Numbered from the stretch's first letter, positions 26,845 through 55,835 are shown. The stretch is 64,000 nucleotides of DNA from Candidatus Multivorans sp. (GCA_965224025.1 OZ245033.1:1888001-1952000); one strand, 5' to 3'. Made by a program: numbers and translations. Notes: generated by a model from the letters alone, not told the origin.

Positions 26845-26864
26845 GAAACCAGGGGGAGCGTGAC

Positions 26865-32248: not shown

Positions 32249-32274
32249 TACGGCCCTATCGCTCGGGTGCCGCC

Positions 32275-32532
32275 ATGAGTCCCAGCATCAAGAACGATGA
32301 CGCTTGTCACCGCCCAAACGAACGTCCTCGCCAAACCGGCAAGCCCAAGACCGCTACGAAGGCCGCCGTGTTACGCGAGAGGCTGAACCCAGGACGGCGA
32401 CAGAACCAGGCAGAGGCCTTGGCCCGGGGACTTCACGAGATCGGACAACGCTGCGCCCGCCTCCTCCAAGCCGGTCCGTCCGCCGTTGAGCATGGCGACT
32501 TGCTGTACGACACGCGCGGACTACCGAAGTGA
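32275..32532 (+). pseudogene. vapB: Degenerate VapB-type antitoxin (Rv0623-like)
   Basis: MSPSIKN...TGKPKT...LRERL...HGDLLYDTRGLPK keeps the family ends, but prolines disrupt the predicted helices. Confidence 0.7.
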
Positions 32533-37800: not shown

Positions 37801-40800
37801 TCCAGCGCCGTCTTCTCCACGCTGTCGAGTACCGCGCTGATCCGATGCGGCACCGCGTCCCCGGCGACGCCGGTGGCCGCCCAGCGATCGAAACAAAACG
37901 CTGTGAGCTGCCGCTCCAGCACGGCCGACGCATTCAGGAACACGCCGGGCGGCTCGACCTTGCCCCCCAACATGTCGAGCGGCTCCTCGTAGAAGTAGAG
38001 ATCGTGCGGCCGTCCGGTCGCCACGGTCAGCGTGAGCGCGTTGCCGTCTCGCCTGCCAGCCCTTCCGATGCGCTGGAGATAGTTCTGCTGCGCCGGCGGA
38101 ACGGAGCAGAGCACCACCGTCGACAGGTCGCCGATGTCGATTCCCAACTCCAGGGTCGGCGTGGCCGACAGCACATTGGGCTCCCACGGTCTCGACTCCG
38201 GGTCGGCGAAGCGTTCCTGGATCTCCGCGCGCTCTTCCCGTGTCAGGAGCGCGGTGTGCTCTGCAGACACGAGGCGGCGGATAGCGGTCTTCCGGTACAG
38301 ACGCCCGAACCACGTTGGCGGCGGAGTTTCATGGCGGCCGTATGCGTCGAAGGCCGCAAGATCGAGGCAGGGAACGCCTTGCCAGAGATCCGCTTCCCGC
38401 TCCGGGACCACGAGCACCCGGTTCGACCTCTCACAGTGCATTACCGCAACGCGGGATGTCGCGTACAGGCCGGTCGGGTCGAGAGCCCATGCCCGGGCGC
38501 TGCCGGCATCTACGCGCTGGACCAGTCCGGCGGTCTTGAGCGAGTCGAGGGCGGCCAAGAGCACATCGGCCGCGTCGTGCGTGGCAGAGAGGGGGTCGAG
38601 GGGCGCCAGGACCTTGGCTGCCCAGTCCAGGTACCACGACCGGCGCGCCTTGCCCGTGGAGCGGCTCCAGGCCATCGCCCTTCGCGGCCCCGTCCGTCGG
38701 AAACACGGGCAGCGGCGAACGCGGGCCGAAGTCCGGAAGGGCGATCTCCCGCCTGGTCAGCCACCAGCGGCTCGCGCCGTTTGCTAGGAACCCCTGCACA
38801 AGGTCGGTCCAGATTGCCCCACGCGTCTTCATGCGGCGCAGGATGCCGAGCAACAGGGCGCGCACCGTGTCGCCGTCTACTTCGCGCAGGCCGCCAATCT
38901 CGCGGATGCGGCCGTGGGCCTCGCCGCAGGCCCCGTCGAGCCGTTCACGATCCACGCCAATCGCGGCCGCGCACGTGCGTTCCAGCGTCCGCCCGATGGT
39001 CGACCGATGGCCGAACTCGGCAAGGGCCTCCCAGCGCAACCGACGGGCCACGAGACCGGGCAGGTCGGATCCCCGCGGCAACCGGCCTTGGCTCTTCAGG
39101 GCTGTGAAGTCTTGAAGCCACAAGCGGTCCGGGGCAATGAACTCGCTCACGAAGCGCTTGGCGTCGAACGTTTCGGAAGCTCCCGCGCTCGCGCTTACGC
39201 CACGCCAGCGGGCCACCACCCCGCCGTCGTCATCCGCGCCGCCGATCAGCTCGGACAACCTGATCTCGCCGTGTTCTTCCACGACCTGAGCGATCGCCGC
39301 CCGCACGTTGTTCGGCCAGGTCCGCGCCGCGACGAAACCGGCCCGGTGAGCGGCATCCTGCACGTTGTCGGAGAACGCGATGACCTTGTGGTCGTCGTTG
39401 TGGCGCGAAGCGAAGGTCTGACCCAGCGCCACGCTGAGCAGGCTGGACGCTCGCGCACCAAAGATGATCAACGCCTCCACGGCGCCGCAGTAGGGACAGT
39501 CGCGGCTCAGTTGCATCCTGGAGCCCCGCCCACCGCGGAAGCTCTTCCTGACGACGGACTCCGGGCGGAACACGCGCAGCACCCGGTCTGCCCCGCAACC
39601 GGCGCACGGCTTGCCGGCATTCTCCGCACTCGCGGTGAGCCGGCCGCAGCCGCCGCAGATCGTGCCGTGGATGCCCCTGGCAGGCGACGGCGCCTCGCCC
39701 GGGAAGAGGTACTGCACGTCGACGTCGCGAGCGAAGAACCGGTTGTAGAAGACGGGCAGGTCGCGTTCGATGCCTTCCTTTCCGCCGCTCTTGACGGCGC
39801 CCCAGCCGGTGGCGCGACACTCCCGGCACTGAATCAGCGGCAGGTGGACAGACGGGTCGTCCGGCTTCAGGTCGTCGGAGTGACGCAGGCGATGCAGCGC
39901 GCGCGGACCGGCGCCGGCGTCCTCGCTCGATCCGCTCAACGCTTCGCCGTCGGACTCGAGCGTGGCACCCTCGTGGGAACCTCGGGAAGCGGCAACGTCC
40001 CCGACTCCGCAGACCATGCGGCGGAGCTCCCGAACCCAGAGGTGCAGCCCGACCTGCAGAAACGGCAGCAGCCGGCCTGTCGTGCTCCCGCCCTCACGCC
40101 CGCGCGCTACCGAGATCAGAGCGCACAGTCCATCGAGCACGGCAACAGCCTCGCGCTCGCTCGCCACGGGCAAGCTCCGGCGAAGTCGGTTTGCCACCTC
40201 CGCCACCGGCACGGGGCGCCCGTCGAGCACCCTCAACAGGTTCACGAAGGTGGCGTGCTCCCGCAGGCGGTCGGCCAACGCCACCCGCCAATCCTCCGAC
40301 TCGAAGTCGCCCTCGATGGGCACGCCGAAGAACAGTTCGTGCAGCGCGCGGACATAGTCCTCAGTCGACTCCTGCCGGCGGTTCAGCAACCCCGCAAGGT
40401 CGCCGCGCGGCATCAGGTAACCCTCGATCAACGAACCGGCCAGGAACTCGTCAATGCTCTGCCGCGACTCACCCACGATGGAACCCGGCCCGAACCGCTG
40501 ATCGAAGATCCGGGACACGTAGGCGCGCAACTCCGGCTCGGCGCCTTCGCCCCCCAGCGTCGCCGACGTGCCGGCGCAGATCAGGCCCTCGCCCGCGCCG
40601 AGCCGAGCGCGCAGGCGCCGAATGAGGCAAGCCAGGTCCGTGCCCTGCGCGCCGTCGAACGTGTGCAGCTCGTCGACCGCCAGGTAGCGCAGCGTGCCCG
40701 GCTCGTTGTGCCGCCAGAGCCGCTGGTCCGAGGGCCGAACCAGGAGGTAGTCGAGCATCTTGTAGTTCGTGAGCAGAATGTCCGGCGGACGCTCCAGGAG

Positions 40801-41367
40801 ACTCTCCCGGTCGGCGACGATGTGCTCCGGCCCCATGCCCACCTGCGGAGCGCGCGCCGCCTGGCCGATGAAGAGCCCCGCAGTGACTCGGCCGCGCAGC
40901 GGCGAGTTCCGATGAATCGTCTTCGCGATGCGCCGAGCCTGGTCAGTCGCCAGCGCGTTCATCGGATAAACGATGATCGCCTTGATCCCCTTTCGGCCCT
41001 CCGGCGTACCCGCCTGTTCGCGGCAGTAGTCGAGAATCGGCAGCAGGAAGCACTCCGTCTTGCCCGAACCCGTGCCCGTGGCAATGATCGTCGAACGTTC
41101 GGCATCCGCAGCCAACCGCGAGAACGCGGTCCGCTGGTGGCGGTACGGTGTGTAGCCGAGCGGCACCTCCGGGAACGGCTCGCCCCCTTCCGGCGCATGC
41201 CGGTACGGCAGAGCGACGGAGAGATACGGGCCCTTGACGAGGTTCTCGGGCTCGGCCAGGAAGTCGTCGACGACGCCGGCCAGCTCCGGGTTGGACGGGC
41301 CGAACCCAGTTCTGAGGAAGGACCGGAGGGCGTCGGCGACTTCGGAGGCGACGGCGGACGGGATCAA
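34812..41367 (-). pseudogene. YprA-like DEAD/DEAH helicase-DUF1998-nuclease (~2184 aa), split by a +1 frameshift near 38660
   Basis: Part 1: TGTGSGKT, YPMNAL, TNYKMLD, VDELH, GTSAT, Cys pairs, DNVQDA. Part 2: EHTA, ATPTLELGIDIG, QRIGRAGR, DTVPGGTGY...C-x-C...CYRC, RPDF...FTDGFEFH. Removing one C in CTCCACG gives LEPLTGKARRSWY. May be an assembly error. Confidence 0.85.
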
Positions 41368-41586
41368 GGGGGCGGTTCGACGGAAGATTACAGGAGCAGC
41401 GGCGGGATAGCCGACACTCTACGCGCGTTTCGTAGCCGCATCTGGTGAGCGCTGGGTCGTTTGTCGACCTGCGCTACGGGCCCGACGCTGGCCAAAGCCG
41501 CAATACGGCTATCCCGATGGCGCCGGCGGGCCGCGGCGAACTGACGACCCGCGTACTGTATCTTCCGGGCACGAAGGGAGACGAGG

Positions 41587-41829
41587 ATGCGAACGCACCA
41601 CTTCACGCTCGTCGTGGAAGGCGCCGACTTGCAGGCCGAGCCGTTGATCGACGAGGTCTTTGAGGCCGGTTGCGACGATGCCACTGTCGGGCGGAGCGAG
41701 GGCATCCAGTACGTCGACTTCGACCGCGACGCGCCCAGCCTCGGCGAGGCCATCCAGTCCGCAATCCGCGATCTCGGCCGGGTCGAAGGCATCCAGGTCG
41801 TGAGGGTTGTCCACCCGAGCGGATCATGA
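41587..41829 (+). CDS. Small HicB-like antitoxin-fold protein
   Basis: 80 aa; HFTLVV...FEAGCDDA...FDRDAPSLGEAIQSAIRD pattern; GAGG RBS. Confidence 0.65.
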   Translation: MRTHHFTLVVEGADLQAEPLIDEVFEAGCDDATVGRSEGIQYVDFDRDAPSLGEAIQSAIRDLGRVEGIQVVRVVHPSGS

Positions 41830-41855
41830 AGAGGTGGCCTCCCTCAAACGACGGC

Positions 41856-42998
41856 TCAGAGTTGTTCCTCAGTAAGGTTGGCCTCCAGGGCGTCCAGAAA
41901 GCCCGGTGGATAGCGGAGTCTGCCCTTTCTGGCCCTCTTCGCGAAACCACCAAGCGCGCGTTGCGAGAGGTCCGGCCACTTCCCCGTCGCGAACGCGGAG
42001 AGCCTGCCCAATCGCCTCTTCACCGGATACTCGGAGACCGATGCGATCATTCTCCGGCCATCGACGCTCCAGCCCGCGGTTGGCCAGCGCGTTCCGGGTT
42101 CCAGAGGAACGTCCGTCCCGTCGTCGTACTCCCCAGGGTCTGCCAATCGCTCCCCGATCCACTTCGCCACTGGCACCGAAACGGCATTCCCCACAAGGCG
42201 CCAGCGGTGCCGACCGGCCGGTCCCCGCAATGCCGAAGTCCAACCCGGTCGGAACCCTTGAAACCGCTCCACCGCCTCTATTGGCGGCGTTACGACGCGC
42301 CCGGTCGGCAGGAGAACCGCGGGCGGGGACGGTATCGCCAAAGACGATCCAGCCTTCAGCGGGGGAATCGCGTCGGCCGTCAGGCCGTGCCCAACCCGCC
42401 CCTCCGTCCAGTAGAAGCCAAGCGGTTGCGACCCCACCGGTTCGGTCAAGTCGAACCTGGGCGGCTCGCTCCCAGGGGCCTCGTCTGCCAGCAGTACTTG
42501 CCGGGGATCTCCCACCTGACTGGCGACGATGAACACGCGACGCCGGCGCTGAGCGAGTCCGAACGAGCGACTGTCGACGACCCGGTACGCCCACCTGTAG
42601 TTCCGGCGTTCGAGCCGGTCGAGGATCGAGGAGATCGCCGCACCTTTCCGCAGGTGCAGCATGAAGTAGACGTTCTCGATGACGACCCACGGAACGGCGC
42701 GCACATCGAGCAGCCTGAACAGGTGATCGACGATGACGCTCTTACTGCCCTTGATGCCCTCCTTGTCGCCGGCCATAGAGAGGTTCTGGCATGGGAACCC
42801 CGCCGTGACGATGTCGGCATCGTCCGGCAACGCCGCGAGATCGGCCACGTCATCATGGAAGCGTGCCTTAGGCCAGCGTCGTCGAAGCACTGTAGACGCG
42901 TAGTCGCAGTTCTCGCAGAGCAGCCTCGGGCGATGGCCCGCGCGCTGCAGGCCCAACTCGAAGCCGCCGATGCCGGCGAACAGCCCTGAAACCAGCAT
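41856..42998 (-). CDS. dcm: DNA (cytosine-5)-methyltransferase
   Basis: Start trimmed to MLVSGLFAGIGG; GFPCQ, ENV, QRRRRVF, RFQGF, VGNAV motifs. Confidence 0.93.
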   Translation of the reverse strand: MLVSGLFAGIGGFELGLQRAGHRPRLLCENCDYASTVLRRRWPKARFHDDVADLAALPDDADIVTAGFPCQNLSMAGDKEGIKGSKSVIVDHLFRLLDVRAVPWVVIENVYFMLHLRKGAAISSILDRLERRNYRWAYRVVDSRSFGLAQRRRRVFIVASQVGDPRQVLLADEAPGSEPPRFDLTEPVGSQPLGFYWTEGRVGHGLTADAIPPLKAGSSLAIPSPPAVLLPTGRVVTPPIEAVERFQGFRPGWTSALRGPAGRHRWRLVGNAVSVPVAKWIGERLADPGEYDDGTDVPLEPGTRWPTAGWSVDGRRMIASVSEYPVKRRLGRLSAFATGKWPDLSQRALGGFAKRARKGRLRYPPGFLDALEANLTEEQL

Positions 42999-44466
42999 GA
43001 ACTCTGGACTCTCCCCGGCGCGTCGGCTCACGTCTTTCGCAGACTCGGCCGCGACCAAGACCCAACCTGCCCCATCAATCCTCGAAGCTCGGGTTGTAGG
43101 CCACCGAATCGCGGAGTCCGAACAGTCCGAGCCCGTCGAGGAACTCCATCGGAAGTGCGGAGTGTATACGTCGCCGAAGGTGGCCGATGCCATCCTCGAC
43201 CAAGTCGGGTGGCGCGGCGACGCCGATCTCTCCAAGGCTCGTCTACTGGAACCGGCGGCGGGCAACGGCGAGTTCGTGCTCCAAGCCGCGAAGCGACTGG
43301 TTACCTCGTTCCGAGCACGAGACGTCGAGCCCCGGATCCGCGAACTGAGCGCCCGGATCACCGCTTTCGAGATTCACCCCGGCGCCGCGACCGAAGCCCG
43401 GAGTCGAGTAGAAGCCGGCCTTCGGGGCATTGACCTCCACCACAAGACGGCAGCCGCGTGCTCCGCCGCCTGGATCAGAACCTCCGACTTCCTGCTTTCC
43501 GCGCCAGCCGCCCGACCGTACTCCCACGTCGTCGGCAACCCGCCCTACATCCGCTGGTCCAAGATCCCAGCCCAGCTCAAATCCCTTTACGAGGAACGAC
43601 TCCCCTCCGCCATGACGCGCGGCGATCTATTCCTTCCATTCCTCGACCGGTCTCTCGACCTTCTCGACAGCAGCGGCAAGTGCGGCATTCTCTGCTCCGA
43701 CCGCTGGCTCTACATGGTATTCGCCCGGAGGTTCCGCGCAAAGTGGCTACCTCGCCTGACCATCGAGTCCAACGAGACCATCAACGCCAAAGACGCCTTC
43801 TCCAGTCCCGTCGCCACTTACCCGTCCATCCTCATCGCTACGAAACGCCGGGCCGCTCGCACCCAGACGCCAGCAGTCGTCCGCCATGCGGGCGAGACCC
43901 TGCAGGAACTCGGCTGCACGATCAAGGTCGGGCCGGCTCTGGGGCATACGCCCGCGTTCGTGATCGAGCCGGGCAAAGCCGACGTCGAAGCCGAACTGCT
44001 CCATCCTTGGCTCGATAGCTCCGAGGTCCTCGAAGGTGCCATCGCGTCGCGGGAGCGTCGCGTGATCGCCCTGTTCGACGACAACGGCGACCTCCTCGAG
44101 ATCGGCCGCTTTCCCCGCTTGGAACGCCGCCTTCGCCGCTTCGCACCGAAGCTCGAAGCGCGCTCCATCGTCAAGAATGGTGCCGTCTGGTATCGAACCA
44201 TCGACAGGGTGCGCCCCGCCGACTGGGTGCCGCCCAAGCTGCTGATTCCCGGTCTCGCAAAACTACCGCGAGTCGCTATCGACCGCTCGGGGGCCATACC
44301 CTCACACGGCGTCTACGCGGTCTTTCCCCCGGCCGGACACGCCGACGCGGTCTACGAGCGGCTCAGCGATGGCCAGCTTGCGACAGCGCTGGAGGGCGTT
44401 GCACCAAAACTCAAGCGGGGCTACGTGCGGTGCTACAAGCACTTCCTCGCAAAGATCCGGGTGTAA
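42997..44466 (+). CDS. Amino-DNA methyltransferase (N6-adenine type; TaqI/PaeR7I-like gamma class)
   Basis: GVYT, LEPAAGNGEF (motif I), VGNPPY (motif IV), C-terminal WYRTIDR...PKLLIP. Start uncertain (42997-43155). Confidence 0.88.
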   Translation: MNSGLSPARRLTSFADSAATKTQPAPSILEARVVGHRIAESEQSEPVEELHRKCGVYTSPKVADAILDQVGWRGDADLSKARLLEPAAGNGEFVLQAAKRLVTSFRARDVEPRIRELSARITAFEIHPGAATEARSRVEAGLRGIDLHHKTAAACSAAWIRTSDFLLSAPAARPYSHVVGNPPYIRWSKIPAQLKSLYEERLPSAMTRGDLFLPFLDRSLDLLDSSGKCGILCSDRWLYMVFARRFRAKWLPRLTIESNETINAKDAFSSPVATYPSILIATKRRAARTQTPAVVRHAGETLQELGCTIKVGPALGHTPAFVIEPGKADVEAELLHPWLDSSEVLEGAIASRERRVIALFDDNGDLLEIGRFPRLERRLRRFAPKLEARSIVKNGAVWYRTIDRVRPADWVPPKLLIPGLAKLPRVAIDRSGAIPSHGVYAVFPPAGHADAVYERLSDGQLATALEGVAPKLKRGYVRCYKHFLAKIRV

Positions 44467-44551
44467 CGCCACGCCCTGCCAAACCTGGGATCCGGATCTC
44501 CTCCATCAGTGCCACGCACCGCGCCTTCGCCGGCACCTGCGCCGCCCCCGG

Positions 44552-45202
44552 TCAGTCGCCAGCGACACCCATCGCCCGGAGTCTGTTCAGGCAGGCACGG
44601 GCCTCTTCCGGCCGACTCGCCTTTTGCCACAGGCTCCTTACCACGGCTTCCACACCGTTCGGGTACCCGTGAACAGCCGTCAGCATGGCGAGGAACATGT
44701 CCAACCATGACTTCCCCGGCACCGGAAGCGCCGGGTAGCTGTCGGGAAGCCAACCCGGCAGACGTCTCACGTCTATGTCCTTCCCGCCGGGCACCTTGAT
44801 TCTCCGGGCCAACTGCATGTGCCAGTACTGATGACGGCTCTCACTCTCCCATTCCCGCTCAAACCGAAACGCAAGAGGAGCCCTTTCCCCAGCGCCCTCG
44901 TCCCCTTGCTGAGCGAGCAGAAGCAGAACCAAGGAAACCAGATCTCCACCCTGCAGCAACGGCAGGAAGAACCACCATTCGTAACCGGATCGCCTCAATC
45001 TGGGCAGATCTACCATCGGCAGGAACCTCGGATCGTTGCCCTTGAAAACCTGTGTCACTCCTGCTTCGTTGTCAACAATCCGGCCACCCCCTATGAGGCG
45101 CTTGGCAGCCCTACGCGAATCGCTATTCGCCGGCTGTGTCCACTCTCTCACGCCCCGTAGCGCATAGAGCCGCATGAGCTCCCTATTCTTTGCTCCAATC
45201 AT
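44552..45202 (-). CDS. Hypothetical protein, third gene of the ATPase-HK / receiver operon
   Basis: 216 aa, RBS 18 nt after the receiver stop; FRFE...HQYWHMQ...WLPDSYPALP motif-like segment. Confidence 0.72.
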   Translation of the reverse strand: MIGAKNRELMRLYALRGVREWTQPANSDSRRAAKRLIGGGRIVDNEAGVTQVFKGNDPRFLPMVDLPRLRRSGYEWWFFLPLLQGGDLVSLVLLLLAQQGDEGAGERAPLAFRFEREWESESRHQYWHMQLARRIKVPGGKDIDVRRLPGWLPDSYPALPVPGKSWLDMFLAMLTAVHGYPNGVEAVVRSLWQKASRPEEARACLNRLRAMGVAGD

Positions 45203-45220
45203 TGGCCCTCTCTTCGGCCG

Positions 45221-46510
45221 CTATAGAGCGAACCGGCTCTTCGGGGTATAGCCCCAATCGTCCAGGAAGGCCACATGCCGTTGGCTCCACTCACCCTCCA
45301 CTTCCGCGACGAATTCCCGCGGCCCATCTCCCCCGCTTTCAACAGCCAGACCGAACCTTGACTGGTCCTCACAAAACACGGCGCGCTCCCACGGACTGTC
45401 GTCCTCATAGAACATCGCGTGGAGCTCGACGTCGCCATCCAGCTTCGGCCACCAGAAACAGGTCCGCCCTGTCCAAACCTCCTGGCGATACCGGGCCACC
45501 TCCAGAAACCGCCGAAAGGTCTTCTCCTCAAGAGCGAACGGCGGTTCACTTGCCGCGACCGCCTGGTTCCAGCGCTGCAGCACACCAGCACCATCGCCGA
45601 GAAGAAATGGCATTCGCATCAGGAGATGCGGCACATCTACAAGCACCGATTGAGGGGCGATGACGTCCCGCCTGAACCAACGGTCAAGCTCCGCCGCAAC
45701 GACTCGGGCCACAACCTGCCGAGAAGCCTCGTGCACTGGGTCCCCTTCCGAGGCGGCTCGTAAGCCAGCCGTGATCACTTTCCGCTCACTCGGAATCGGA
45801 AGAGAGCGGCCGGACGACCCGAAAAAGTCCAGGAAGGTCACCGCCTCAAGGGCTGCATCGTCCTCTGATTCTGGCGATAGTGCGCCCTTGGCATGGCGGG
45901 AAAGGTGCACGACGGATCCCCGGTCAAAGGCCACAGCGTCGAGGATCGGCTTCTCCAGTGAGTCCTGGACCAACTTCTCTTGACAACGGCGCCTCGCAGG
46001 CACCTCGTCCAGGCTCGGCCAGTACCACGGAAGGAAGCCCTTGCCCTCCCGCCTCCGCGACCCAGTCCACAGGCCGTGGTTCTTGAGATGCGGAAGGTTC
46101 AACGCCAGGTCAGCGGTCGTCTGATAGTCGCCAACCAAGTAGCGAAGATCAAAGTCCGTCTGCGGATTCTTGTTGAGCGACACTATGTAGGGAATGTCGG
46201 TAAAGGCGCGAACCAGCCCCGCCAGCCCTTCCGCCGTGTGGCGTGCGCCGCCAACGTCCAGCTCAGCCAAGTTGTTATCCAGGATCATCAAGTCACTGCC
46301 GGCGCTGGCGAACAGCGGGTCGCTGCACGACGCGCCTGCATCCGCCGCGTCGCTCAAGAACCGCCGACCATGGTCGACGAGCGCGTTCATAGCGCGCTCA
46401 AAGTCCTTGAAAGGAACGACGATCACTTCGTGGTCGACGCCGGCTGCATCGATGGCCTCTTTCGCCTCTTGGCCACGCTTCGGCACATCGTCACATACGA
46501 GGATCCTCAC
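45221..46510 (-). CDS. Response-regulator receiver domain fused to a large unknown C-terminal domain
   Basis: GTG start overlaps the HK stop (GTGA); ILVCDD acidic pocket and LMILDNNL phospho-acceptor; about 290 aa of unassigned C-terminus. Confidence 0.8.
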   Translation of the reverse strand: MRILVCDDVPKRGQEAKEAIDAAGVDHEVIVVPFKDFERAMNALVDHGRRFLSDAADAGASCSDPLFASAGSDLMILDNNLAELDVGGARHTAEGLAGLVRAFTDIPYIVSLNKNPQTDFDLRYLVGDYQTTADLALNLPHLKNHGLWTGSRRREGKGFLPWYWPSLDEVPARRRCQEKLVQDSLEKPILDAVAFDRGSVVHLSRHAKGALSPESEDDAALEAVTFLDFFGSSGRSLPIPSERKVITAGLRAASEGDPVHEASRQVVARVVAAELDRWFRRDVIAPQSVLVDVPHLLMRMPFLLGDGAGVLQRWNQAVAASEPPFALEEKTFRRFLEVARYRQEVWTGRTCFWWPKLDGDVELHAMFYEDDSPWERAVFCEDQSRFGLAVESGGDGPREFVAEVEGEWSQRHVAFLDDWGYTPKSRFAL

Positions 46511-48756
46511 TTCGTTGCCCCTTTCCACGAGAGCTCGATGGACGTGGAGAAGCCGGAACGCGGTCTCACAAACACGGCGCGCACTCCCCTTCGGGCGGCG
46601 ATTAGCCGTACCAAGGCGAGACCCAGTCCCTGACCGCCCATTGCCACCGGCCGATTTCGATCACTGATGCGAAGCCGGCGCTCGAATGGTTCGAACAGCG
46701 CCGGTGCCTCTCCGAGCGGGACACCCAGACCGACGCCCGTGTCGCTCACGCGAAGCCACTCCCGGAATCGCCCCTTGCGACCGCCGTCGAAGGCTACGGA
46801 AGCCTCTTCCGCATCAAGCATGGCGTTCCAAGCGTTGGACAGCAGGTTCTGGAGAACGGCGTTCCAATCGGCAAACGAACCGACCGGGAACCGAAGATCT
46901 TCGGGCACGTCGACAACTTCAAACGCCACGCCAGGCACAATGGGCCGCATGGCGCGGACGACGCTGCCGACAACAGGACCAACGCGAAGACGCGCCGTAG
47001 CCTCCCTGTCTTCCTCGGACACCAAGGGAGCAAAGAGCTCTTGGAGTGCCCGAAAGCGGCTCCCGGCGTCCGAAAGGTCCCTTGCAATCTCCGCGAGTTC
47101 CGGAGTCTCCAGTCTCGCAGCAACCGCAATCAGTCTATCGGCAAGTCTACTCACGAGCTCGGTTTCGCGAGCGAGCTCATGATTCAGGGCAAGCGCGGTC
47201 ATACCCGCAGTAGCCAGCGGGGCCAACAGTACCGCTCGCCGGTCCGTCTCCTCCTCTGCCTTCTTGGAAGCCTTCTCCGCCGCTACGACCGCACTCCTGA
47301 CTTCCCGGAAAACAACCCGCGGCATCGCGTCCCGGTTCCGGTCCAACGCCGTCACCGCCCTGCGAACGGTTCGTGCCGGTGACTCCTTGGCACGCACTTT
47401 CTCGGCCGCCTGGGCCGCCAGCATCCGATAGCGACTGGCATAGAAGTCCAAGGAGAACCGGACGAGATCGCCGAGTTGCTCGAACGCGGCGTTCTCGGCG
47501 AGCCGGTCTCGACCCGGCGAGAGCTGGAGCGACTGGCCCGGCACCACGCGAGTTCTCTCTGCGAGCCCTCGTTCGTGGTTGGTGTCGATCTCCACCGCAC
47601 CGAAGATCCTGCCTGGGGCGGGCAGATCCAATAGGTAGCGCCCTTCGACATTCAGCCGTGCGGGAAGGAGTTCGGAGGCAATCAACCGGCGACCTTGATC
47701 TCTTGTCACGTTCAACCAATCCTGCGATGCACCGTAGTAGGGGAGCCTGAACCCGCTGTCATAAACCGAGACGTTGCCGTACCGGCGCAGGTACTCCCTG
47801 ACTTCTCCAACTGCCAACCCACCTGGCTGCCTTCCTTCCGTCTTGAAGACCAGAATCTCGAATTTCGTGTGATCTATGGCACACGGGATGCTAGGACTTC
47901 TGGTCGGCCGGGACCTAATCGGCAGCGACATTCTCTCTCTGAAAGATCTAACCGCCTCTTGGCCCTCCGGATAGCCTGGCTTGAACTCCACCTCTACCGT
48001 CGCCTCTCCTCCACCCCGCCCGTCCCTGAGCCGCCCTCTGATCTTCGCCTTCCAGTTCTGGAACAGGGCGGTTTGCAGCTTGTCGAAGGCCTCCTTCGCG
48101 TGCCGGATCGCCGGTGCGTCGATGGCGATATGAAAGTCCAGCGCCGAACGTTCAGCCCGGTGAACCGGCGGTGCCCCGGACGGCGGTCGCAGCAGCCAGA
48201 TTTCTTGACCCAGCTTCTCGATCTCCTCCGTGTCCCACTCCCTCCTGAGCTTCTTGAGCACGATCCGGGTACCTGAGTTCCCAGCGATCGGACAGGTCAT
48301 CGGTGTGTCGCGCACCTCCCAGAGAACGTTCACCGTCTCCAAGTCCTGGCCCCGTCGAACAGCGGTCCAGTCGACGATCGCGTAGAGATGGCGTGAAGGG
48401 TCGTCGGCCGTGGAACTCTCAAGAGTCATTTCGTCAGCCAGGAACTGGACCGAAAGACGACCGATTCCCTTCGAGCCCGTCATCGGCCGACAAAGACCCC
48501 GCGACTCACGCGTCACCGTTTTGTGCGTCGTGCCGAGACGCATCCAATGCGCGTGGAACTCTCGCCGAGAAATGCCGTGCCCGTTGTCAGATACGATAAT
48601 CTCGTCGTCGCGGAATTCGATCCGACAATCGGTCGCGTCCGCGTCGTACGAGTTCTTGAGGAGTTCTGCCAGCGCTATGTACGAACGACCGATCAGTCGT
48701 TCACCCAACTCCTGCACCAAGGCAGCGTCTACCGTGAACTTTGCGGATTTCATCAT
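46507..48756 (-). CDS. MORC/MutL-type GHKL ATPase fused to a histidine kinase
   Basis: N-terminal ELLKNSYDADA, DNGHG, GSKGIGR; H-box ALNHELARE; second GHKL domain QNLLSNA, DTGVG, FEPF, GQGLGL. No TM segments. Confidence 0.9.
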   Translation of the reverse strand: MMKSAKFTVDAALVQELGERLIGRSYIALAELLKNSYDADATDCRIEFRDDEIIVSDNGHGISRREFHAHWMRLGTTHKTVTRESRGLCRPMTGSKGIGRLSVQFLADEMTLESSTADDPSRHLYAIVDWTAVRRGQDLETVNVLWEVRDTPMTCPIAGNSGTRIVLKKLRREWDTEEIEKLGQEIWLLRPPSGAPPVHRAERSALDFHIAIDAPAIRHAKEAFDKLQTALFQNWKAKIRGRLRDGRGGGEATVEVEFKPGYPEGQEAVRSFRERMSLPIRSRPTRSPSIPCAIDHTKFEILVFKTEGRQPGGLAVGEVREYLRRYGNVSVYDSGFRLPYYGASQDWLNVTRDQGRRLIASELLPARLNVEGRYLLDLPAPGRIFGAVEIDTNHERGLAERTRVVPGQSLQLSPGRDRLAENAAFEQLGDLVRFSLDFYASRYRMLAAQAAEKVRAKESPARTVRRAVTALDRNRDAMPRVVFREVRSAVVAAEKASKKAEEETDRRAVLLAPLATAGMTALALNHELARETELVSRLADRLIAVAARLETPELAEIARDLSDAGSRFRALQELFAPLVSEEDREATARLRVGPVVGSVVRAMRPIVPGVAFEVVDVPEDLRFPVGSFADWNAVLQNLLSNAWNAMLDAEEASVAFDGGRKGRFREWLRVSDTGVGLGVPLGEAPALFEPFERRLRISDRNRPVAMGGQGLGLALVRLIAARRGVRAVFVRPRSGFSTSIELSWKGATK

Positions 48757-48853
48757 GCGCTAGGACCGCCGTGCCAACGCCTTGGGGACCGCGAGACGAC
48801 GAATCTGCTCGCAGATGACCACTGAGAAAGTACCCGATAGAGCCTCGGCTGAG

Positions 48854-49279
48854 ATGCCGGTGGACCCGGCGCGTTCCGCGCTGATGGGGAGAGTTCGCGG
48901 GCGGGATACGAAGCCCGAGTTAGTCGTTCGTAGAACGGCACACGCCTTGGGCCACCGCTTCCGGCTTCACCGACGGGACCTGCCTGGTACGCCCGATCTC
49001 GTCTTCCCGCGGCTCCGCAAGGTGGTCTTGGTCCACGGGTGCTTCTGGCATCGGCACCCCGGCTGCCCACGGACGACGACACCGAGGACCCGTGTCGCCT
49101 AATGGCAGGACAAGTTCCGCAAGAACATCGAGCGAGACCGGCGGAGAATCCGGGAACTGCGGACGCTGGGTTGGGACGTGCTCGTCGTATGGGAATGCGA
49201 GACGTTCGAACGCACGAAGGTGCGGGCGTCGCTGTCCAGGTACCTCGACTGCCCTCCGCTTGGGCAGCCGGCCCCGTGA
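48854..49279 (+). pseudogene. vsr: Very short patch repair endonuclease with premature TAA (49100-49102)
   Basis: RSALMGRVRGRDTKPE, LPGTPD, VHGCFWH; after the stop the same frame continues WQDKFRKNIERD...LGWDVLVVWECE. Confidence 0.92.
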
Positions 49280-52200
49280 CTCTCGCCGACATCGCCGGGC
49301 CGGCGAGGGCCGAAACGGGGCTCCTGCCCGGCACATCGCAATCCGCTTCCATCAACCCCTTCCGTATCGTCGTTCGAAGGCCGTCCACGCGACCCGGTAG
49401 TCCGCCTCGCGGTCGCAACGGTCGAACGGAGCATGGTACTCGATGGTCCGTTCGACGGGGCCGCCGGGGAGGGTGTCGTCGGTGATACGGCGGGTCACGA
49501 CAGCCTCCTCGATGCCGTTGATGTCCTCCCAGCCCAAGGCGATGCCGTCCCGGTCGGTTCCCAGCGTGCGCAGGCCGTAGGCCGTGTCGCCCTTGCGCGC
49601 CTTTCGAGGCAGGCCGACGCCGGGAAGGCCCTTGGAGACGGTGAAGACGATGCGGCCGTTCCGGTCGTACCAGGTGTCGGCCTCGTAGTGGCGCATGACG
49701 GGGAACTGGACCCGGTAGACAGTCAGGAGCTCTTCCAGGGTCAGGCCGAGGGCCATCGCGGTGAGGACATCGATCTCGACGAGGGCTTGCCGGCGGGCGT
49801 AGTCGGTCCGCAGAGCGACCTCCCAGCGCCATTCCGGCGTGAGTTGGGCGAAGTCCTGCGGCAGACGGGGGCCCCTTTTCGCCCAGGCGTCCGTTCGGAA
49901 CGCTTCAATGGCCGGAGGGCCACCACCCAACGCGAGGCTCTCCGAGCCGAAGGTGGCTCCCGCACCAGCCGCCCGGCTACGAGCACCCACTAACTCCCCG
50001 GTGCAGATCTCGGACCACAGATCGGCGTAGTGGCTGGTCAGGCAGCAGAGACTGAGGGCCCTGATCCGAAGCGCGTTCCGAATGCGCGGGTCGCAGGCTT
50101 CTCCCAGTATCGGCAGGCGGCTCAACCAAGAAACGTTGACTTCCCCGGTACCTGCGCTCTTGACGAAGAAATCGAGAACGACGGACATTGATAGCGCCGC
50201 GAAGTCCAAGCAGGTCTCTGCCCTGCCGAAGACGTTAGCCATAACGGTGTTGATCAGGGCCGCGTCCCGAGGAACGAGAGCAGAGATCAAAGACCGCTCG
50301 GCCAGAGGGCCGACCATCCTTCGGTTCACGACACGCCAGTACTCCGTCGCCTTCAGAGGCCATCCTCGTTCCGGGCTCGACCACGGCACAGCAGGCGTTC
50401 GCCGTTCGTACTCTCTCCGCCCGCACGCCGCCACGTAGTTCCCTCGCGGCAGATAGTCCGCCGGGAGCGTGGTCAGGTCCAAGACGTCGTAGTCGCTATT
50501 CTTCGTGCAGGTCCTTCGCGGTGTCTTGTTGAACGGGTTGCCCACGAAGAAGTGCGGCCCCGAGAAGATCAGGTCCGCCGGCGTTTCCGGAAACGCGGTC
50601 TGTCTTCGAATGGTCGCATCCTTCTGCGAAGCGGTTTCGTGCCAATGAGAGGTCACGAAGAAGTCGTCCTTCAAGTCGCCGAGTCGCCGCTGATGCTCGG
50701 CGAACTTGCGGAGCACGGCCAGCAGCACCCTCGAATGCAGGGCCGGCAACCGCGCCTGTAACGATGGAGTCCCGGACGGGTCATACAACCTCGCGAAGGT
50801 GCTCAGGCCGTGGACGTCGATCTCGACGATCCGGTGCTCATGGCCGACGATGCTCCAGTTGTTCGCGTCATCCTTGATGCTGGGCACGGGCCCGGCGCCG
50901 TCGTGCTCCAAACAGGCATCCACCGTCGCAGGAGCGAAGAGGTTGGCGATATGAGCGAATCGGGGCGACGACCGCCGCTCACCGTACACATTGACGCTGA
51001 ACAGGGTGTGGTGATCAACCTCGGGGAACAGTCGTTTCTCGTTCTGAAACTGGAAGTGCCCACGGAGTCGCAGATAGAGCGCCTGTCTGAGCTCCCCGCC
51101 CTTCGGGTCGTCGTACACTCCCTCGGGATGCAGGAACCCTGCCACGCCTGCCTCGCTCGCCACCATCCATGCCTGCGGGGCGAAGCACTTGTACAGATTC
51201 GCCTGCTGACCGGAGAGTAACGGATAGTTCTGCAGCGCACTCAGGTACGTCCGCATCGCCTCCGCCGCTTCCAACGCGGTGAGCCAAGCGTTCCGCAAAC
51301 CTGCATACCGGTTGAGGGCTGCACCGCGCAGACCGGCGAGCGCGGCTGCCGAGTAGCCGCGAAGCGCGAGGAGCGGATTGTAGTCCCCCAGCAAGTCGCC
51401 CTCCTCCCATCTCACCTTCACCCACGGCGGATTCCCCACCACCAGATCGAAGCCGCCACGGATCTCCCCACCGGCCCGCTCCCCGTAGAACACGTCCGCG
51501 AACGCCAACTCCCAGTGGTGGCAGCGGTGCCGCGCCGCCAGTTCGTCGACGAACTTCAGCCGCGGAAACTGCTCGAACAGTTTGTCGAGGTCCAGCATCC
51601 CGATCGCGTTCGTGATCCGTTTGGCGATCTCGTCCCCGTGCTCAGCGTACTCCTCGCCGAACAAGTCGGCGGTCTGGTTCGGCCCGAGGCCGGGCTGAAA
51701 CACGGAGCCGGTGAGGACCAGAGTGATCTCGTTCAGGAAGTCGTCGCGGTCCGGCAGTTGGTCCGCCTTCTCGATGGGCCAGAACCAGAGAGCGCACCAG
51801 TAGTCCATGACCAGCTTCAGACGCCGGTAGGGGCTCGCCGTGCGCCCGCTCTCACTGAGTACACCCTGGGCGCGGATGCGGTCCTTCCAGGCGTTCGTCG
51901 TGAGGCGCTCGCGCTCCGCGGGCGGCTGGCCCCACACGGGCAGGGTGTCCTCTGTTGCCCGGTGGTCGCGGGCGAGCTGCTCGGAGTGAAGGGCCCAGAG
52001 TTCGTCCACCCGGTCGGAGAGCCTCTCAAGCTCGGCAATCTGGTCGCCAGCAAACGGCCGAACGAAGTCCCTGCGCCACTTCGAAGTGCGCTCGAAGCTC
52101 TCGGGCGCCAGTTCCTTCGCCGCCTTGTTCCGGTAGTTCGCCATGCCGGGGTCGGGGACGAGAAAGTGGTACACGGCACCGGGCGGTCGCCGCGGCGCGT

Positions 52201-52662
52201 GGGTCAGCGGTTCGACCCGTTCCGGCGGTTCGTTGAACCAGAGGTCGGCCTTCCGTTTCTGGCGACGCAACCTCGCCGAAGGGAACACCTGGCGCCTCGC
52301 GCCCACCAGCGAGTTGCCGCACAGGAGTTGGTAGCCGAACCACGGCACGTGGCCGTCTTGGTGGATGCAGTTCAGCCACAACGAGACCTCCGCCAGTTCA
52401 AGCGCCACGGGGTTCAGGTCCACCCCGTAGACGTTGCGGTCCGCGATGTAGTGCCGGACCTTCTGTAGCTCGCCGGCGTATTCGTCGTGCGGGATGCGAT
52501 CGCCCAGTTCGGCCTGCTTGCGGTCGAGGTACTTCTCGGCAAGCTGGTTCACGGCCTCGTTGAGGAACGCAGCGGAACCCATTGCCGGCTCGCACACGGT
52601 GAGGTCCAGGATGCGGTCGGCGGGCATGTCGTCCGGGATGAGTTCCTTGAGCGAGTACTTGA

Positions 52663-54160
52663 GGCTCTTTTGAATTGCGAGTGGGTCAAGCGGTGTGCGG
52701 GTTGAGCGTGTGGAAGTCGAGTTTGCCGGCGATGAGGAAGAAGGCGATGCGTATGGTGTCGAATCGCTTGTAGCCTCTGGCCTTGCGTTTGGCGGACTGG
52801 AAGAGTCCGTTGAGGGCTTCGAGGAAGCCGTTGGTCTGCCGGGTTCGCGCCCAGGCAGCGATCGCTTGCAGGTGCTTTCGGATGGTGCGGGCGACGGCCT
52901 TCATGGGTTCGACCTTGGAGCGGTTCACGTTGGTGCACCACTGATGGAGCATTCGCAGCACGACGTTGATCTGCTTGCGGTTGAGAATTTCGCGGAGTTG
53001 CTCCCGATAGAGCCAGGCGCGTGCGGTGCGTCGGCTGGCGACCCTCTTGACGAAGCGGTCGAGGTCGGCCCGTTGGGCCGGCGTCAGGGAGTCGCGGTTC
53101 TTGAGCAGCGTCCAGCGCAGGCCCTTCAGCGACGGATCGAGGCGCTGTTCGAGGCGCCGGGTCTCGTCCACCGCCTTCGAGGCCAGGGCCATGACGTGGA
53201 ACTTGTCGAGGGTCACCTCGGCGTTGGGGAGATTCTCGGCGACGCCCTTGAGGAAGGCGGCCGACATGTCGATGGACGCCCGGCTGATCGCGGCGGGATC
53301 GCCGCCGCGCCTTTGCAGATCGTCGGCGAACTCCTCGATCGTGCCGGACTTGCGTCCCTCGGCGAGGAACACCACGCGCCGGCGCTCGCTGTCGGCGACC
53401 GCGGTCACGTAGTCGTGCCCCTTGGCGCGGGAAGTCTCGTCAATGGCCACGTGGCGCAGTTCGGAGAGGTCGTCCCGGTCGACCGCCAGCTCGACGTAGC
53501 GCTTGCAGATCGCGTGCACCCGATGCCACGACACCCCGGTCAACCGGGCCACCGCAGCGAAGGTCATGTCTCGGCACATGGCCAGAATCAAGGCTTCGAA
53601 CAGCAGCGTGAAGCCGGACAATCTGCCCGACCAGGGCGGAGTCACCAACGCCACCCGCTGGTCGGGGAGTCGCACACGGGGCACTCGCGCCTCGAGCAGG
53701 CACTCGTGCTGGAAGAAGTTGAGGTGCCGATAGCGCTTGATCTGCGTGTCGTGCACCGGATGAGAACCGCCGTCCCCCTCGTGGGCGAATCGGCTGCCCT
53801 TCCTGAAGTCGATCCGTATCGTCAACCGACGCTCCCTCTCACAGAAGTCCACGCCGTCAACGAACCACGGCGCCGACACGCCCAGCGCTCTCGCGAACAA
53901 TTCCCTCTGCATCTCTCGTCCTCCTTCAGTCGGAACAGGAGAGACGAGTCTTGCTCATTCCGATCGCCCGCGACTACAGCCGCCACCCGAAATCGCCGCG
54001 AACGCCCTCCCCACCGGACAGCTTGCGCCCTCGCCGCTACCGGTCTTCCGCAGATTCCACAGCCCGACGGCGGCGGCTACGGCGGCGGAGGCCGCTATCC
54101 CAAGACCCCCTCAGCATCTGCACTCGCCCGCGCCCTACCCACTCGCAACTCGAAAGAGGC
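52663..54160 (-). mobile_element. Complete ISL3-family insertion sequence (1498 bp)
   Basis: 24-bp terminal inverted repeats GGCTCTTTTGAATTGCGAGTGGGT / GCCTCTTTCGAGTTGCGAGTGGGT (3 mismatches); 8-bp target duplication GTACTTGA at 52655-52662 and 54161-54168. Confidence 0.95.
52686..53912 (-). CDS. ISL3 family transposase
   Basis: RHL...VPRV, SGFTLLFE, IDETS, IDMS, DKFHV, TNGFLEALNG...KRKARGY DDE motifs. Confidence 0.95.
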   Translation of the reverse strand: MQRELFARALGVSAPWFVDGVDFCERERRLTIRIDFRKGSRFAHEGDGGSHPVHDTQIKRYRHLNFFQHECLLEARVPRVRLPDQRVALVTPPWSGRLSGFTLLFEALILAMCRDMTFAAVARLTGVSWHRVHAICKRYVELAVDRDDLSELRHVAIDETSRAKGHDYVTAVADSERRRVVFLAEGRKSGTIEEFADDLQRRGGDPAAISRASIDMSAAFLKGVAENLPNAEVTLDKFHVMALASKAVDETRRLEQRLDPSLKGLRWTLLKNRDSLTPAQRADLDRFVKRVASRRTARAWLYREQLREILNRKQINVVLRMLHQWCTNVNRSKVEPMKAVARTIRKHLQAIAAWARTRQTNGFLEALNGLFQSAKRKARGYKRFDTIRIAFFLIAGKLDFHTLNPHTA

Positions 54161-55835
54161 GTACTTGACGACGCACTTGGTGAGCGACTCGGGCGTGTAG
54201 TAGCTCGCCGTCTTCTGCCGGTCACGACCGGCCAGGCGGTAGACGAACGAGCCCTTCGGATGGACTCGGAGCTTCTTGCGGCCCTGTTCGTCCCGGTCGT
54301 AGACCTTCTCTTCGTCCTCGTACTCGCTCAGGTCACGCGCCGGCACGAACCAGACGCTGGCGAGAACGTCGGGCTTCTCTCCCGCCTTCTTTACCTCGTA
54401 CAGGTCCTCTTCGGCGAAGAAGCCCCGGTAGGAGAGCAGGGCCTCGTAGACCGCGCCCAATTGGTTGATGCCGAGCTGGGCGTATGAGATGCGGCCGCGA
54501 CGGCCGCGACGGCCCTTTGCCGGGCGGCTGAGGGACATCAGCTTGATCACCCGCTGGAGCACCCGGTTGCGCAGCTTCACGCGGTCAAGGAGCGGCGTGG
54601 CGTCGTCCCGGAAGAGGCGGCTGTCAAGGGCCCTCATCCGGAAGCCGTGGCTGCGAGAGGGGCTGCTGCCGAGCACGAACTGACTGCCCTGGTCGCCGAA
54701 GCCGTCGCGAACGAGCCGGAAGAGGATCTGGACGCTGTCATGCAGGTAGTACCCGTCGAGCGACTCCTCGCTCGTCAGACGCACCAACTCCAGGTCCCGC
54801 AGCCGTTCCAGGCTGTAGCCCTTCCGGTACGCCTCGGCGTCCACGGGCGCATAGCCCAGATCGGGCCGCGCCTCGATGTAGAAGAGAAACAGCAGCCGAT
54901 ACATGTAGCGCAAGCACTCCAGGCCGAGCTCGCCAGCGAGCTGGTCGTCGAGGTCGTACACACGGTCCTTGCTCACTTCGCGCAGGTACCGGATCGCCTC
55001 GTTCCCGATCAGCTCGATCGACTCGCGCAGCGCGTACTTCAGGTCCTCCGAGACGGCGAACGCGTGCTTGTGGCTGTTCTCGTCCAGACTGTCGAGAAGG
55101 CTCCCGCCCTGCGCGGGGACGAGGCACTCGCGGTGCAGAAGGGCTGCTGCGGCCTTGAGCGTGGCGCCGTCGCGGCGACCGAGAACCTCATTCAGGTCGA
55201 AACGCAGCAGCCGGTTGTGGGTCCACTTCCCGCGTTCGATCAGGAGAACCTGTCCCGCGGAAAGGAGCACTACCCAGCGAGGTGGTTGTTGCTGCCCGAA
55301 GATGCGGCGGGTGACGATCTCGCTCCAAGTGTCTCGGAGCAGCGCCTCCGGCGGCGGCGCCTCGCCGTGGAACTGGGCGCGGTGCGGCTTGAGGGTGAGC
55401 GGATCCTCGTCTTCCCCCGTGGCGTCGTAGGCGCCGAGCACCAGCAGGTTGATCCTGCCGTGCTGGCTCGCGGCGTGCAGTACCGGCACTTCATCGCCGT
55501 CGTCGAGGACGTGGTTGCCCGGTTCGTACTCGTAGCCGAGGGCGGCGAGAAGCTGGCGGAACCACTCCCGCTGACGTTCAACGCGGACCTCGGCCCGGCG
55601 TTCCCGACCAAATCGGTCACGGAACCGGAGGTAGTCACGGGCGAGCCCTCCGAGCGCGTCGTAGGGCGTCCTGGCGTCGGCAGTCGCGCCACGCGCCGCT
55701 TTCGCTTCGGCGCCCCAACGGGCGACGGTCTCTCCGATGTCCTTGGCGAAGATCTCCGCGAGGTAGTGCTGGCTGTAGAACTCGTTCTCGTTGTGAATGC
55801 CGGGGAACGTGGCGGCGGCGTTGGCGGGCATCGGC

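Follow-up and report, generated by a model that had tools for sequence, protein, structure and literature searches.

A methyltransferase-linked paraMORC-kinase/receiver cassette in Candidatus Multivorans: a probable divergent branch of a described class with a candidate role in phosphorelay-switched defence

What does a gene cluster do that couples two DNA methyltransferases (MTases) to a soluble histidine kinase (HK), a receiver protein and a small protein without a recognised family? The question is raised by positions 41,856 to 49,279 of a 64,000-nucleotide stretch of DNA from Candidatus Multivorans sp. (GCA_965224025.1 OZ245033.1:1888001-1952000), referred to here as the window. The window has a G+C content of about 65%, so that long spurious open reading frames (ORFs) are common, and real genes were separated from them by family scans. 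These scans recovered all genes, and their coordinates, named in a preliminary description of the locus, which had proposed a methylation-based immune system that was not yet described:

41856-42998, minus strand: C5-cytosine DNA methyltransferase (C5-MTase), about 380 amino acids (aa); PF00145, 4.5e-38
42970-44466, plus strand: N6-adenine DNA methyltransferase (N6-MTase), Eco57I/gamma type, 498 aa; PF07669, 1.7e-12
44552-45202, minus strand: 216-aa protein of no known family; ORF kept in relatives
45221-46528, minus strand: 435-aa receiver-like protein, receiver (REC) domain at about 1-190 and output domain at about 190-435; predicted fold and invariant residues
46507-48756, minus strand: 749-aa soluble protein with a paraMORC-type GHKL ATPase, an H-box (DHp) and a histidine-kinase catalytic domain; PF13589 and PF02518
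48854-49279, plus strand: vsr (very-short-patch repair endonuclease), divergent from the kinase; PF03852, 2e-22 on the part before a premature stop

The ORFs of kinase and receiver share 22 nt, and 18 nt separate the receiver from the 216-aa gene. The C5-MTase lies in a long ORF (41856-43361) that overshoots the gene, whose true start is near M122; besides PF00145 it matches TIGR00675 (8.7e-37) and, across residues 122-497, the PADLOC MTase_II model PDLC03324 (9.9e-115), and its sequence shows FAGIGG, GFPCQ, ENV and QRRRRVF motifs. The N6-MTase, head-to-head with the C5-MTase, runs convergently towards the 216-aa gene; it matches PADLOC MTase_II PDLC03313 (5.9e-82) and carries a GNPPY motif. 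Its first 45-57 residues are unconserved in six loci (see below), so the true start may be further in. A promoter and terminator scan of 41300-49500 gave no promoter-like site and four terminator-like sites, against 5.9 expected by chance. A second 749-aa ORF in the window, at 18726-20975, was considered as a paralogue of the kinase and ruled out (BLASTP E 3.2).

The kinase, the receiver, the 216-aa protein and both MTases are intact in the window. Vsr enzymes repair T:G mismatches that arise from deamination of 5-methylcytosine (m5C), and the preliminary description had counted a divergent vsr among the flanking genes. That gene is present (PADLOC Vsr, 2.3e-10); it is interrupted by an in-frame TAA at 49100-49102, where all 10 homologues have Tyr or Phe. 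Contigs from two sequencing runs of one sample match the window over 40688-49400 without a difference, the stop in vsr included. The assembly was probably made from this sample, whose support for the stop is therefore not independent. Because the TAA is premature, falls where all 10 homologues have an aromatic residue and is reproduced in the two runs, we consider the window's vsr to be probably a pseudogene.

We asked whether the genes belong together by following them into other bacteria. Among 8000 candidates scored, 376 full-length relatives of the receiver were found at E<=1e-3. The best 120 of these are 409-534 aa long and 43-97% identical to it; none has a precomputed Pfam domain, and the three with a name in their source are each called 'hypothetical protein'. 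A pattern scan of one genome per species then gathered 15 loci, whose gene content was read by tblastn with the window proteins. They come from Acidobacteriota (Ca. Multivorans, Vicinamibacterales, Thermoanaerobaculia and Blastocatellia), Pseudomonadales, other Gammaproteobacteria and Allosphingosinicella (Alphaproteobacteria). The kinase lies directly upstream of the receiver in all 15. One contig ends just after the receiver gene (L011) and is not assessable for the remaining genes; in each of the 14 assessable loci the receiver is followed by the 216-aa gene, a convergent N6-MTase and a divergent C5-MTase, always in this order. This bears out the tight coupling of GHKL/kinase, receiver, 216-aa protein and MTases that had been proposed from the window, and is a five-gene arrangement far beyond chance. 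vsr, also part of the synteny expected in the preliminary description, is less constant: it adjoins the kinase in 10 of the 15 loci, divergently in eight and co-directionally in two. Since all-against-all clustering of the ORFs of the loci gave no further non-overlapping gene common to all, the core unit is of five genes, with vsr as a frequent sixth. Some copies in metagenome-assembled genomes are broken, by a frameshift in the kinase (L005), a truncated match to the 216-aa protein (L003) or an insertion in the N6-MTase (L007).

The distribution of the cassette is patchy. The receiver family occurs in 2 of 301 sampled genomes of the phylum, the window's own genome counted, and in none of five genomes of the same genus. 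A relative 93-95% identical to the window, covering 38381-48738, was found in a sequencing run of a different study (X4). As judged from these sequences, the sporadic occurrence fits a mobile accessory module, and the cassette appears to move between bacteria as a unit.

Next to be considered is the kinase, whose domain content points to a protein that combines two ATPase modules. HATPase_c_3 (PF13589) matches residues 27-133 (1.1e-19) and HATPase_c (PF02518) residues 634-740 (2.4e-15), and both families were detected in all 15 kinase homologues. In the alignment of the 15 kinases the N-terminal ATPase keeps E31, N35, D57-x-G59-x-G61 and G94-S-K-G97-x-G99 without change, the H-box keeps H526-E527, and the C-terminal kinase domain keeps N641/N644, D672-x-G674-x-G676 and G707-G708-x-G710-x-G712. 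Because H526-E527 and, in both ATPase domains, the N, G1 and G2 boxes are thus invariant, both ATPase modules and the phosphorylatable His look competent. No transmembrane-like segment was seen in the kinase (maximum hydrophobicity score KD19 1.37). The best named relative of the ATPase head is the BbrUII/HgiDII family NF050001 (1.8e-25, residues 6-183 against profile positions 2-180). Of the 659 positions of that profile 180 are matched, and the score of 89.6 bits lies far below the cut-off of 550, so full-length membership of that family is not indicated. Two PADLOC REase_II models also match the head (3.7e-12), and no other PADLOC model matched the kinase.

A metagenome protein of 1162 aa (P0391) joins a kinase of this kind (PF13589 and PF02518) to the receiver output domain, the output part being 45% identical over 97% of receiver residues 190-435. 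From its sequence it could be either a natural kinase-receiver fusion or a read-through miscall, and in a search for fused output domains among longer proteins it was the sole fusion found.

The receiver escapes the sequence models. It has no match in Pfam, NCBIfam or PADLOC, none of 68 receiver sequences matches PF19192 or PF00072 at E<=10, and a search of its profile against the sequences of the Protein Data Bank (PDB) returned no match at E<=10. An AlphaFold2 model built from the 68 sequences reached a mean per-residue confidence (pLDDT) of 90.2 and a predicted template-modelling score (pTM) of 0.92. Nearly all of the 50 chains listed by VIA for this model are receiver domains, with Z of 6.6-8.1 over 112-134 residues; the best is 5m7n_A (Z 8.1, root-mean-square deviation (rmsd) 3.7 Å, 131 residues aligned). 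The Foldseek list is likewise mostly receivers (best E 5e-3). D13, D14, D84, S117 and K120 are invariant in the 68 sequences. Because the list is uniform and these residues are invariant, residues 1 to about 190 can be assigned to the REC fold, recognisable by the predicted fold and the invariant residues only, and with middling scores. The receiver domain claimed in the preliminary description thus holds at the level of predicted fold and acidic residues, while the sequence models of the three databases do not detect it. The residues that its proposed His-Asp phosphorelay would use are invariant, His526-Glu527 in the 15 kinases and Asp84 and its companions in the 68 receivers.

Folded alone, the output domain (residues 190-435, 245 aa) gave a pLDDT of 84.7, with low confidence in the last 30 residues. 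It is predicted to be mostly helical with a small C-terminal sheet, and its invariant polar residues include R286, Q293, D298, H301, R305, E387, D388, R417, S431 and R432. A wide VIA search returned rows of helical bundles, at best Z 4.8 (rmsd 3.3 Å, 58 aligned), and the best Foldseek E was 0.86; no helix-turn-helix (HTH) or winged HTH (wHTH) family or fold was found in the domain at a useful score. The fold search that had been suggested for this protein therefore gave a REC fold for its N-terminal part and no match for its output part. The model of the output domain is accordingly without a match among solved structures, which is no proof of a new fold.

The 216-aa protein is equally remote from named families, with no match in Pfam, NCBIfam or PADLOC and no recurring Pfam family among 57 relatives. 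Its profile, run against 1.84 billion representatives, retrieved 770 relatives at E<=1e-3, of which 209 reached E<=1e-10, almost all of them stand-alone proteins of 200-250 aa. Over the 57 members G17, P62, R113, H124, Q130, P157 and G179 are invariant, and E115, Y126 and H128 nearly so; these clustered polar residues might form a site for catalysis or metal binding. The window's copy has a hydrophobic stretch (KD19 2.0) that does not appear to be a feature of the family, as only 5 of the 57 members reach 1.6. Against PDB sequences the profile gave rows at chance level only (E 0.78 or worse). An ESM Atlas lead to DUF2290 (0.86) was not taken further than a lead, none of the 57 relatives matching that family in Pfam. 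Two odd relatives, P0259 (986 aa, repeats) and P0267 (DUF4011 and a C5-MTase fragment), look miscalled or chimeric and were left unused.

Structure prediction suggests a physical connection between these two proteins. The predicted complex of receiver and 216-aa protein reached an interface score (ipSAE) of 0.68 in all three runs, against 0.09 for the best of three controls, with at least 91% of contacts common between runs and a partner pLDDT of at least 77. Of 80 solved complexes 58 attain this score level, as do 2 of 110 mismatched pairs, counts that hold only roughly for our prediction, which used custom alignments. In the predicted interface the C-terminal helices of the 216-aa protein (residues 182-209) pack on receiver residues 304-307, 367-384, 395, 405 and 413-418. 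The output domain and the 216-aa protein are thus predicted to bind each other.

Is this a system that has been seen before? In part it is. The families HEF_HK (PF19191) and Response_reg_2 (PF19192) were defined by Bellieny-Rabelo, Pretorius and Moleleki (Genome Biol Evol 2021, PMC8011034), who report that HK-like and response regulator (RR)-like genes are linked at 91.6% in 644 regions, that HATPase_c_3 + HEF_HK + HATPase_c is the main kinase architecture (174 of 222), and that C5-MTase, Vsr and type II restriction-modification (R-M) domains are enriched near the HK/RR pairs. The article, which is presented as comparative genomics without experiments, proposes descent from paraMORC ATPases, and its authors speculate that the signalling controls R-M systems (PMC8011034). 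Our literature search by the Pfam names PF19191 and PF19192 found no later functional study. The cassette shares with this class a soluble kinase that joins HATPase_c_3, an H-box with His-Glu and HATPase_c, next to it a receiver-like protein without another known domain, and C5-MTase, N6-type MTase and Vsr as neighbours. It differs in that its receiver has no match to PF19192 and its kinase H-box hardly reaches PF19191: the window kinase has no match to PF19191 at E<=1, a scan of the whole genome placed none in the window at E<=10, and one of the 15 kinase homologues matches it (1.2e-4), with His526-Glu527 sitting where expected. It differs also in that its branch strictly keeps both MTases.

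A direct comparison is offered by the same genome, which holds a canonical PF19191/PF19192 locus about 370 kb away (G000:C1:2311000-2330900, L018). Along this locus lie, in order, a C5-MTase, the HATPase_c_3 part of a kinase, an ISL3 transposase, the HEF_HK + HATPase_c part, a Response_reg_2 protein of 545 aa, an unannotated ORF of 203 aa and an N6_N4 MTase, and the only PF19192 match of the genome lies at C1:2320914-2321441. A profile of the window kinase matches the ATPase head of this locus (hmmsearch, 2.4e-21), and BLASTP gives weak collinear matches through the follow-on module, the H-box and the N/G1 boxes. The two loci share a layout with two MTases and a small third ORF, while the sequences of their receivers and third proteins are unrelated. 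From these alignments we take the window kinase to be a remote member of the canonical lineage, and its receiver output domain and third protein to be different families that occupy the same architectural slots. The Pfam models PF19191 and PF19192 and the models of PADLOC 2.0.0 therefore miss part of the class.

The only experimentally tested relative of the class that our literature search found is Ambrosia (bioRxiv 10.1101/2025.09.30.679545), which is described as AbrR (XRE), AbrA (N6-MTase), AbrB (HK/HATPase), AbrC (REC-wHTH) and AbrD (type IV HNH); it defends Pseudomonas aeruginosa against phages and needs the receiver Asp to do so. We compared it by this description of its genes. Both clusters combine an R-M-like MTase, an HK/HATPase protein and a receiver, whereas the cassette has two MTases, vsr and the 216-aa protein, and an output domain in which no wHTH was recognised. 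The family scans gave no XRE or HNH match to the cassette proteins, and no further gene is common to all the loci.

More distant likenesses help to place the parts. The BbrUII/HgiDII family (NF050001) has the same N-terminal GHKL ATPase head and is likewise partnered with DNA MTases; profile positions 181-659 are replaced in the window kinase by the H-box and the kinase domain. Prokaryotic MORC and paraMORC ATPases linked to R-M systems were reportedly recognised by Iyer, Abhiman and Aravind in 2008. The paraMORC proteins have since been described as a GHKL head with a conserved follow-on module, encoded near MTases, helicases and nucleases and proposed to sense unmethylated or hemimethylated DNA (bioRxiv 10.64898/2026.09.30.754977). 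The window kinase shares the head, the follow-on module and the MTase neighbourhood; its head is fused to a full histidine-kinase core and coupled to a receiver, and not to a nuclease or helicase. Detocs is said to consist of a kinase (DtcA), a buffer receiver (DtcB) and a receiver-effector (DtcC). On these roles it resembles the cassette in the scheme of a three-gene defensive phosphorelay that ends in a receiver-effector fusion, and differs in that the cassette has a MORC-type ATPase as sensor, obligatory MTases, no stand-alone receiver and no PNP-type nucleosidase effector.

The preliminary description had called the locus its best candidate for an undescribed system, which this comparison does not support: the gene combination was described computationally in 2021 (PMC8011034), and the related Ambrosia blocks phages. 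The kind is therefore already in print, and the cassette is, on sequence comparison, a divergent branch of it; the match to a named system holds for the class and not for the exact families. New here are the receiver and partner families outside existing models, the output domain without a solved match, the obligatory MTase pair and a recurrent nesting among DISARM/Druantia-like genes, to which we return below.

How might such a cassette work? We lean modestly towards a self-contained, horizontally mobile five-gene module, a divergent branch of the MTase-linked paraMORC-kinase/receiver systems, that gives restriction-like defence against phages or plasmids through a receiver/216-aa output switched by phosphorelay. 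The two MTases, identified as such by sequence, would mark the host's own DNA, and Vsr, where intact, would mend the T:G mismatches left by deamination of m5C. The MORC-type ATPase head would engage DNA and read its modification state. The C-terminal kinase domain would then autophosphorylate on His526 and pass the phosphate to receiver Asp84, a chemistry for which the residues are invariant. Phosphorylation may switch the 245-aa output domain, which in the predicted complex holds the 216-aa protein through an invariant R305-M306-P307 loop, and the receiver/216-aa complex would carry out the output. We favour a direct effector over a transcription factor here; a plain transcription factor is disfavoured because the output domain matched no Pfam family and no solved fold, those of DNA-binding domains among them. 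An immune role linked to methylation is plausible, and we infer an effector role for the receiver C-terminus and the 216-aa protein, as the preliminary description had proposed. A bolder version is rather improbable in our judgement: that the 245-aa domain and the 216-aa protein (R113...H124...Q130) form a previously unseen phospho-activated effector, and that a MORC-type clamp reads m5C together with N6-methyladenine and sets off an enzyme of a new kind, giving a 'phosphorelay-gated restriction'.

Several observations weigh against the defence module that we favour. Scans of the kinase, the receiver and the 216-aa protein gave no signature of a nuclease, HEPN, HNH, PLD or any other effector, which makes the activity of the output a guess. 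The receiver families of the window and of the canonical locus align over 19 columns only, at the phospho-acceptor motif (hhalign probability 0.8%; BLASTP not significant), and profiles of the window's receiver and 216-aa protein find nothing in the canonical locus. As the output parts are not homologous, it is likeness of architecture and context that any inference drawn from the described class depends on. The matches to receiver folds are of middling quality (Z 7-8, Foldseek E near 1e-2). The one invariant Lys, K120, lies three residues past S117, after beta-4, where canonical receivers have theirs after beta-5, and a feature-based lead in the ESM Atlas, to be read as a lead only, points to PF22563 (iREC, 0.86); phospho-acceptance by the receiver Asp is not assured. 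The calibration of the predicted complex is rough, owing to the custom alignments. The authors of Ambrosia favour infection-induced transcription of R-M-like enzymes over direct activation of an effector (bioRxiv 10.1101/2025.09.30.679545), and the branch described here is itself known from sequences and models alone.

These points lend weight to other readings. In the closest one, transcriptional control as in Ambrosia, the kinase would sense infection and phosphorylate the receiver, whose C-terminal domain, perhaps with the 216-aa protein, would bind DNA and induce the MTases, the DISARM/Druantia-like neighbours or both, so that the killing lies outside the three genes. The reporter data and model of the Ambrosia authors point this way (bioRxiv 10.1101/2025.09.30.679545), as do the lack of an effector signature in the cassette, the 6 of 15 loci that place it between a type IIG/DrmMI-like MTase and a DruE-like helicase, an output domain rich in invariant Arg (R286, R305, R417 and R432), and a weak VIA row to a winged-helix excisionase (Z 3.5, 55 residues). 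Yet the searches for HTH and wHTH domains gave nothing at a useful score, and the cassette is whole in the 9 of 15 loci where no DISARM/Druantia-like gene was found in the flanks searched. With no nuclease gene universally linked there is also nothing constant to induce except the MTases, and in the window an insertion sequence (IS), a frameshift and a stop have disrupted the outer genes, the cassette remaining whole. We rate transcriptional control as rather unlikely on this evidence. Finding out what the output is would show whether His-Asp phosphotransfer gates restriction directly through an effector and not through transcription.

A further reading dispenses with phosphotransfer: the 749-, 435- and 216-aa proteins would form an ATP-dependent multi-subunit restriction enzyme that cuts unmethylated DNA, their kinase- and receiver-like domains being structural or ATP-driven switches. 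BbrUII and HgiDII are single-chain enzymes that cut unmethylated DNA, and the ATPase head is closest to this bona fide type II restriction-enzyme family and matches the PADLOC REase_II models; the strictly kept MTase partners and the odd Lys of the receiver, with its iREC-like lead, would also suit such an enzyme. We nevertheless think it distinctly unlikely, since the invariance of His526, Asp84, the acidic pair and the ATP boxes (15 kinases, 68 receivers) is hard to explain without phosphochemistry, the NF050001 match is partial and far below its cut-off (180/659 positions, 89.6 bits against 550), and no nuclease motif was found. Very unlikely, in our view, is an epigenetic or addiction module with no part in defence, in which two orphan MTases are adjusted by a two-component pair of the cytoplasm (e.g. 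to DNA damage or replication state) and the whole persists selfishly. The speculation of the 2021 authors that signalling controls R-M systems (PMC8011034) would accommodate it, and the MTases are indeed the only constantly linked genes, with no nuclease found. Against it stand the sporadic spread across phyla (2 of 301 genomes in the phylum sample, none of five in the genus), the repeated placement of the cassette in defence islands and the experimental defence given by the related Ambrosia (bioRxiv 10.1101/2025.09.30.679545).

Among these readings the restriction-like module with a direct output is the one that we find most likely. The class to which it belongs, MTase-linked MORC-kinase/receiver pairs, is widespread and mechanistically almost blank: one preprint shows defence, and no published work establishes which signal the ATPase head reads or in what way the receiver works. 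The branch offers a clean test case, with five core genes, catalytic residues intact and two parts in a predicted complex that are unlike known effector or DNA-binding domains.

The nesting mentioned above is evident from the genes on either side of the cassette:

32683-34815, minus strand: UvrD/REP-type helicase; PF00580, 1e-22
34812-41367, minus strand: DruE-like DEAD helicase with an MrfA Zn-binding (MZB/DUF1998) domain; PADLOC DruE, 3.1e-52 and 3.6e-44 (two halves), with DEAD, Helicase_C and MZB
49352-55831, minus strand: type IIG REase-MTase/DrmMI-like gene split by ISL3, C part 49352-52627 and N part 54095-55831; PADLOC PDLC03614, 1.5e-180
about 52640-54090, minus strand: ISL3 element, transposase 52686-53912; NF033550, 3.8e-91
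55836-58733, minus strand: DrmD-like SNF2 helicase; NF038317, 2.9e-107, 360 bits against a cut-off of 610, with SNF2-rel_dom and Helicase_C

The preliminary description had noted that no restriction endonuclease gene is present. This is true of the cassette, while the very next gene is the ISL3-split type IIG REase-MTase/DrmMI-like gene. The PDLC03614 match covers profile positions 570-1417, and in two of the other loci (L004 and L006) the gene is undivided, its halves adjoining in a single frame. The gene fits type IIG models better than DrmMI (1.5e-180 against 1.7e-30). On the other side, the DruE-like gene is frameshifted near 38642-38650 into two overlapping ORFs; it is a single frame in L001, and the relative from the different study (X4) has two extra bases at 38642. 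Because the MTase is split by an IS, the helicase frameshifted and the vsr stopped, the outer genes are decayed, and the cassette is nested in a decayed DISARM/Druantia-like island. A complete, intact DISARM or Druantia set was not found: the DrmD-like helicase stays below its cut-off, and PLD-type DrmC was not searched for.

The arrangement is not confined to the window. The cassette lies between a type IIG/DrmMI-like MTase and a DruE-like helicase in 6 of the 15 loci (L001 and L003-L007), from two classes of Acidobacteriota; in the other nine tblastn found no DISARM- or Druantia-like gene in the flanks searched. From these sequences, the recurrent nesting points to a composite island that was passed on, by inheritance or transfer, as a single block, and the two systems could work together rather than just share an island.

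The ISL3-family element has 20 matches in the genome, of which 12 are near full length at 99-100% identity. One copy (L018:12248-13474), identical to the window's in 408 of 408 aa, splits the HEF_HK kinase of the canonical locus about 370 kb away. Since the copies are nearly identical and split both genes, a recent IS burst appears to have knocked out two defence genes.

Three further features lie on the DruE side of the cassette. The UvrD-like gene is directly downstream of the DruE-like gene and may belong to the outer DISARM/Druantia-like system. A 273-aa ORF (31711-32532, plus strand) has a weak Rv0623-like (PSK_trans_fac) match of the antitoxin type (2.3e-5, below the cut-off). The edge of the island appears to be marked by a PQQ-dependent dehydrogenase that carries a cytochrome c domain (26442-29168, plus strand).

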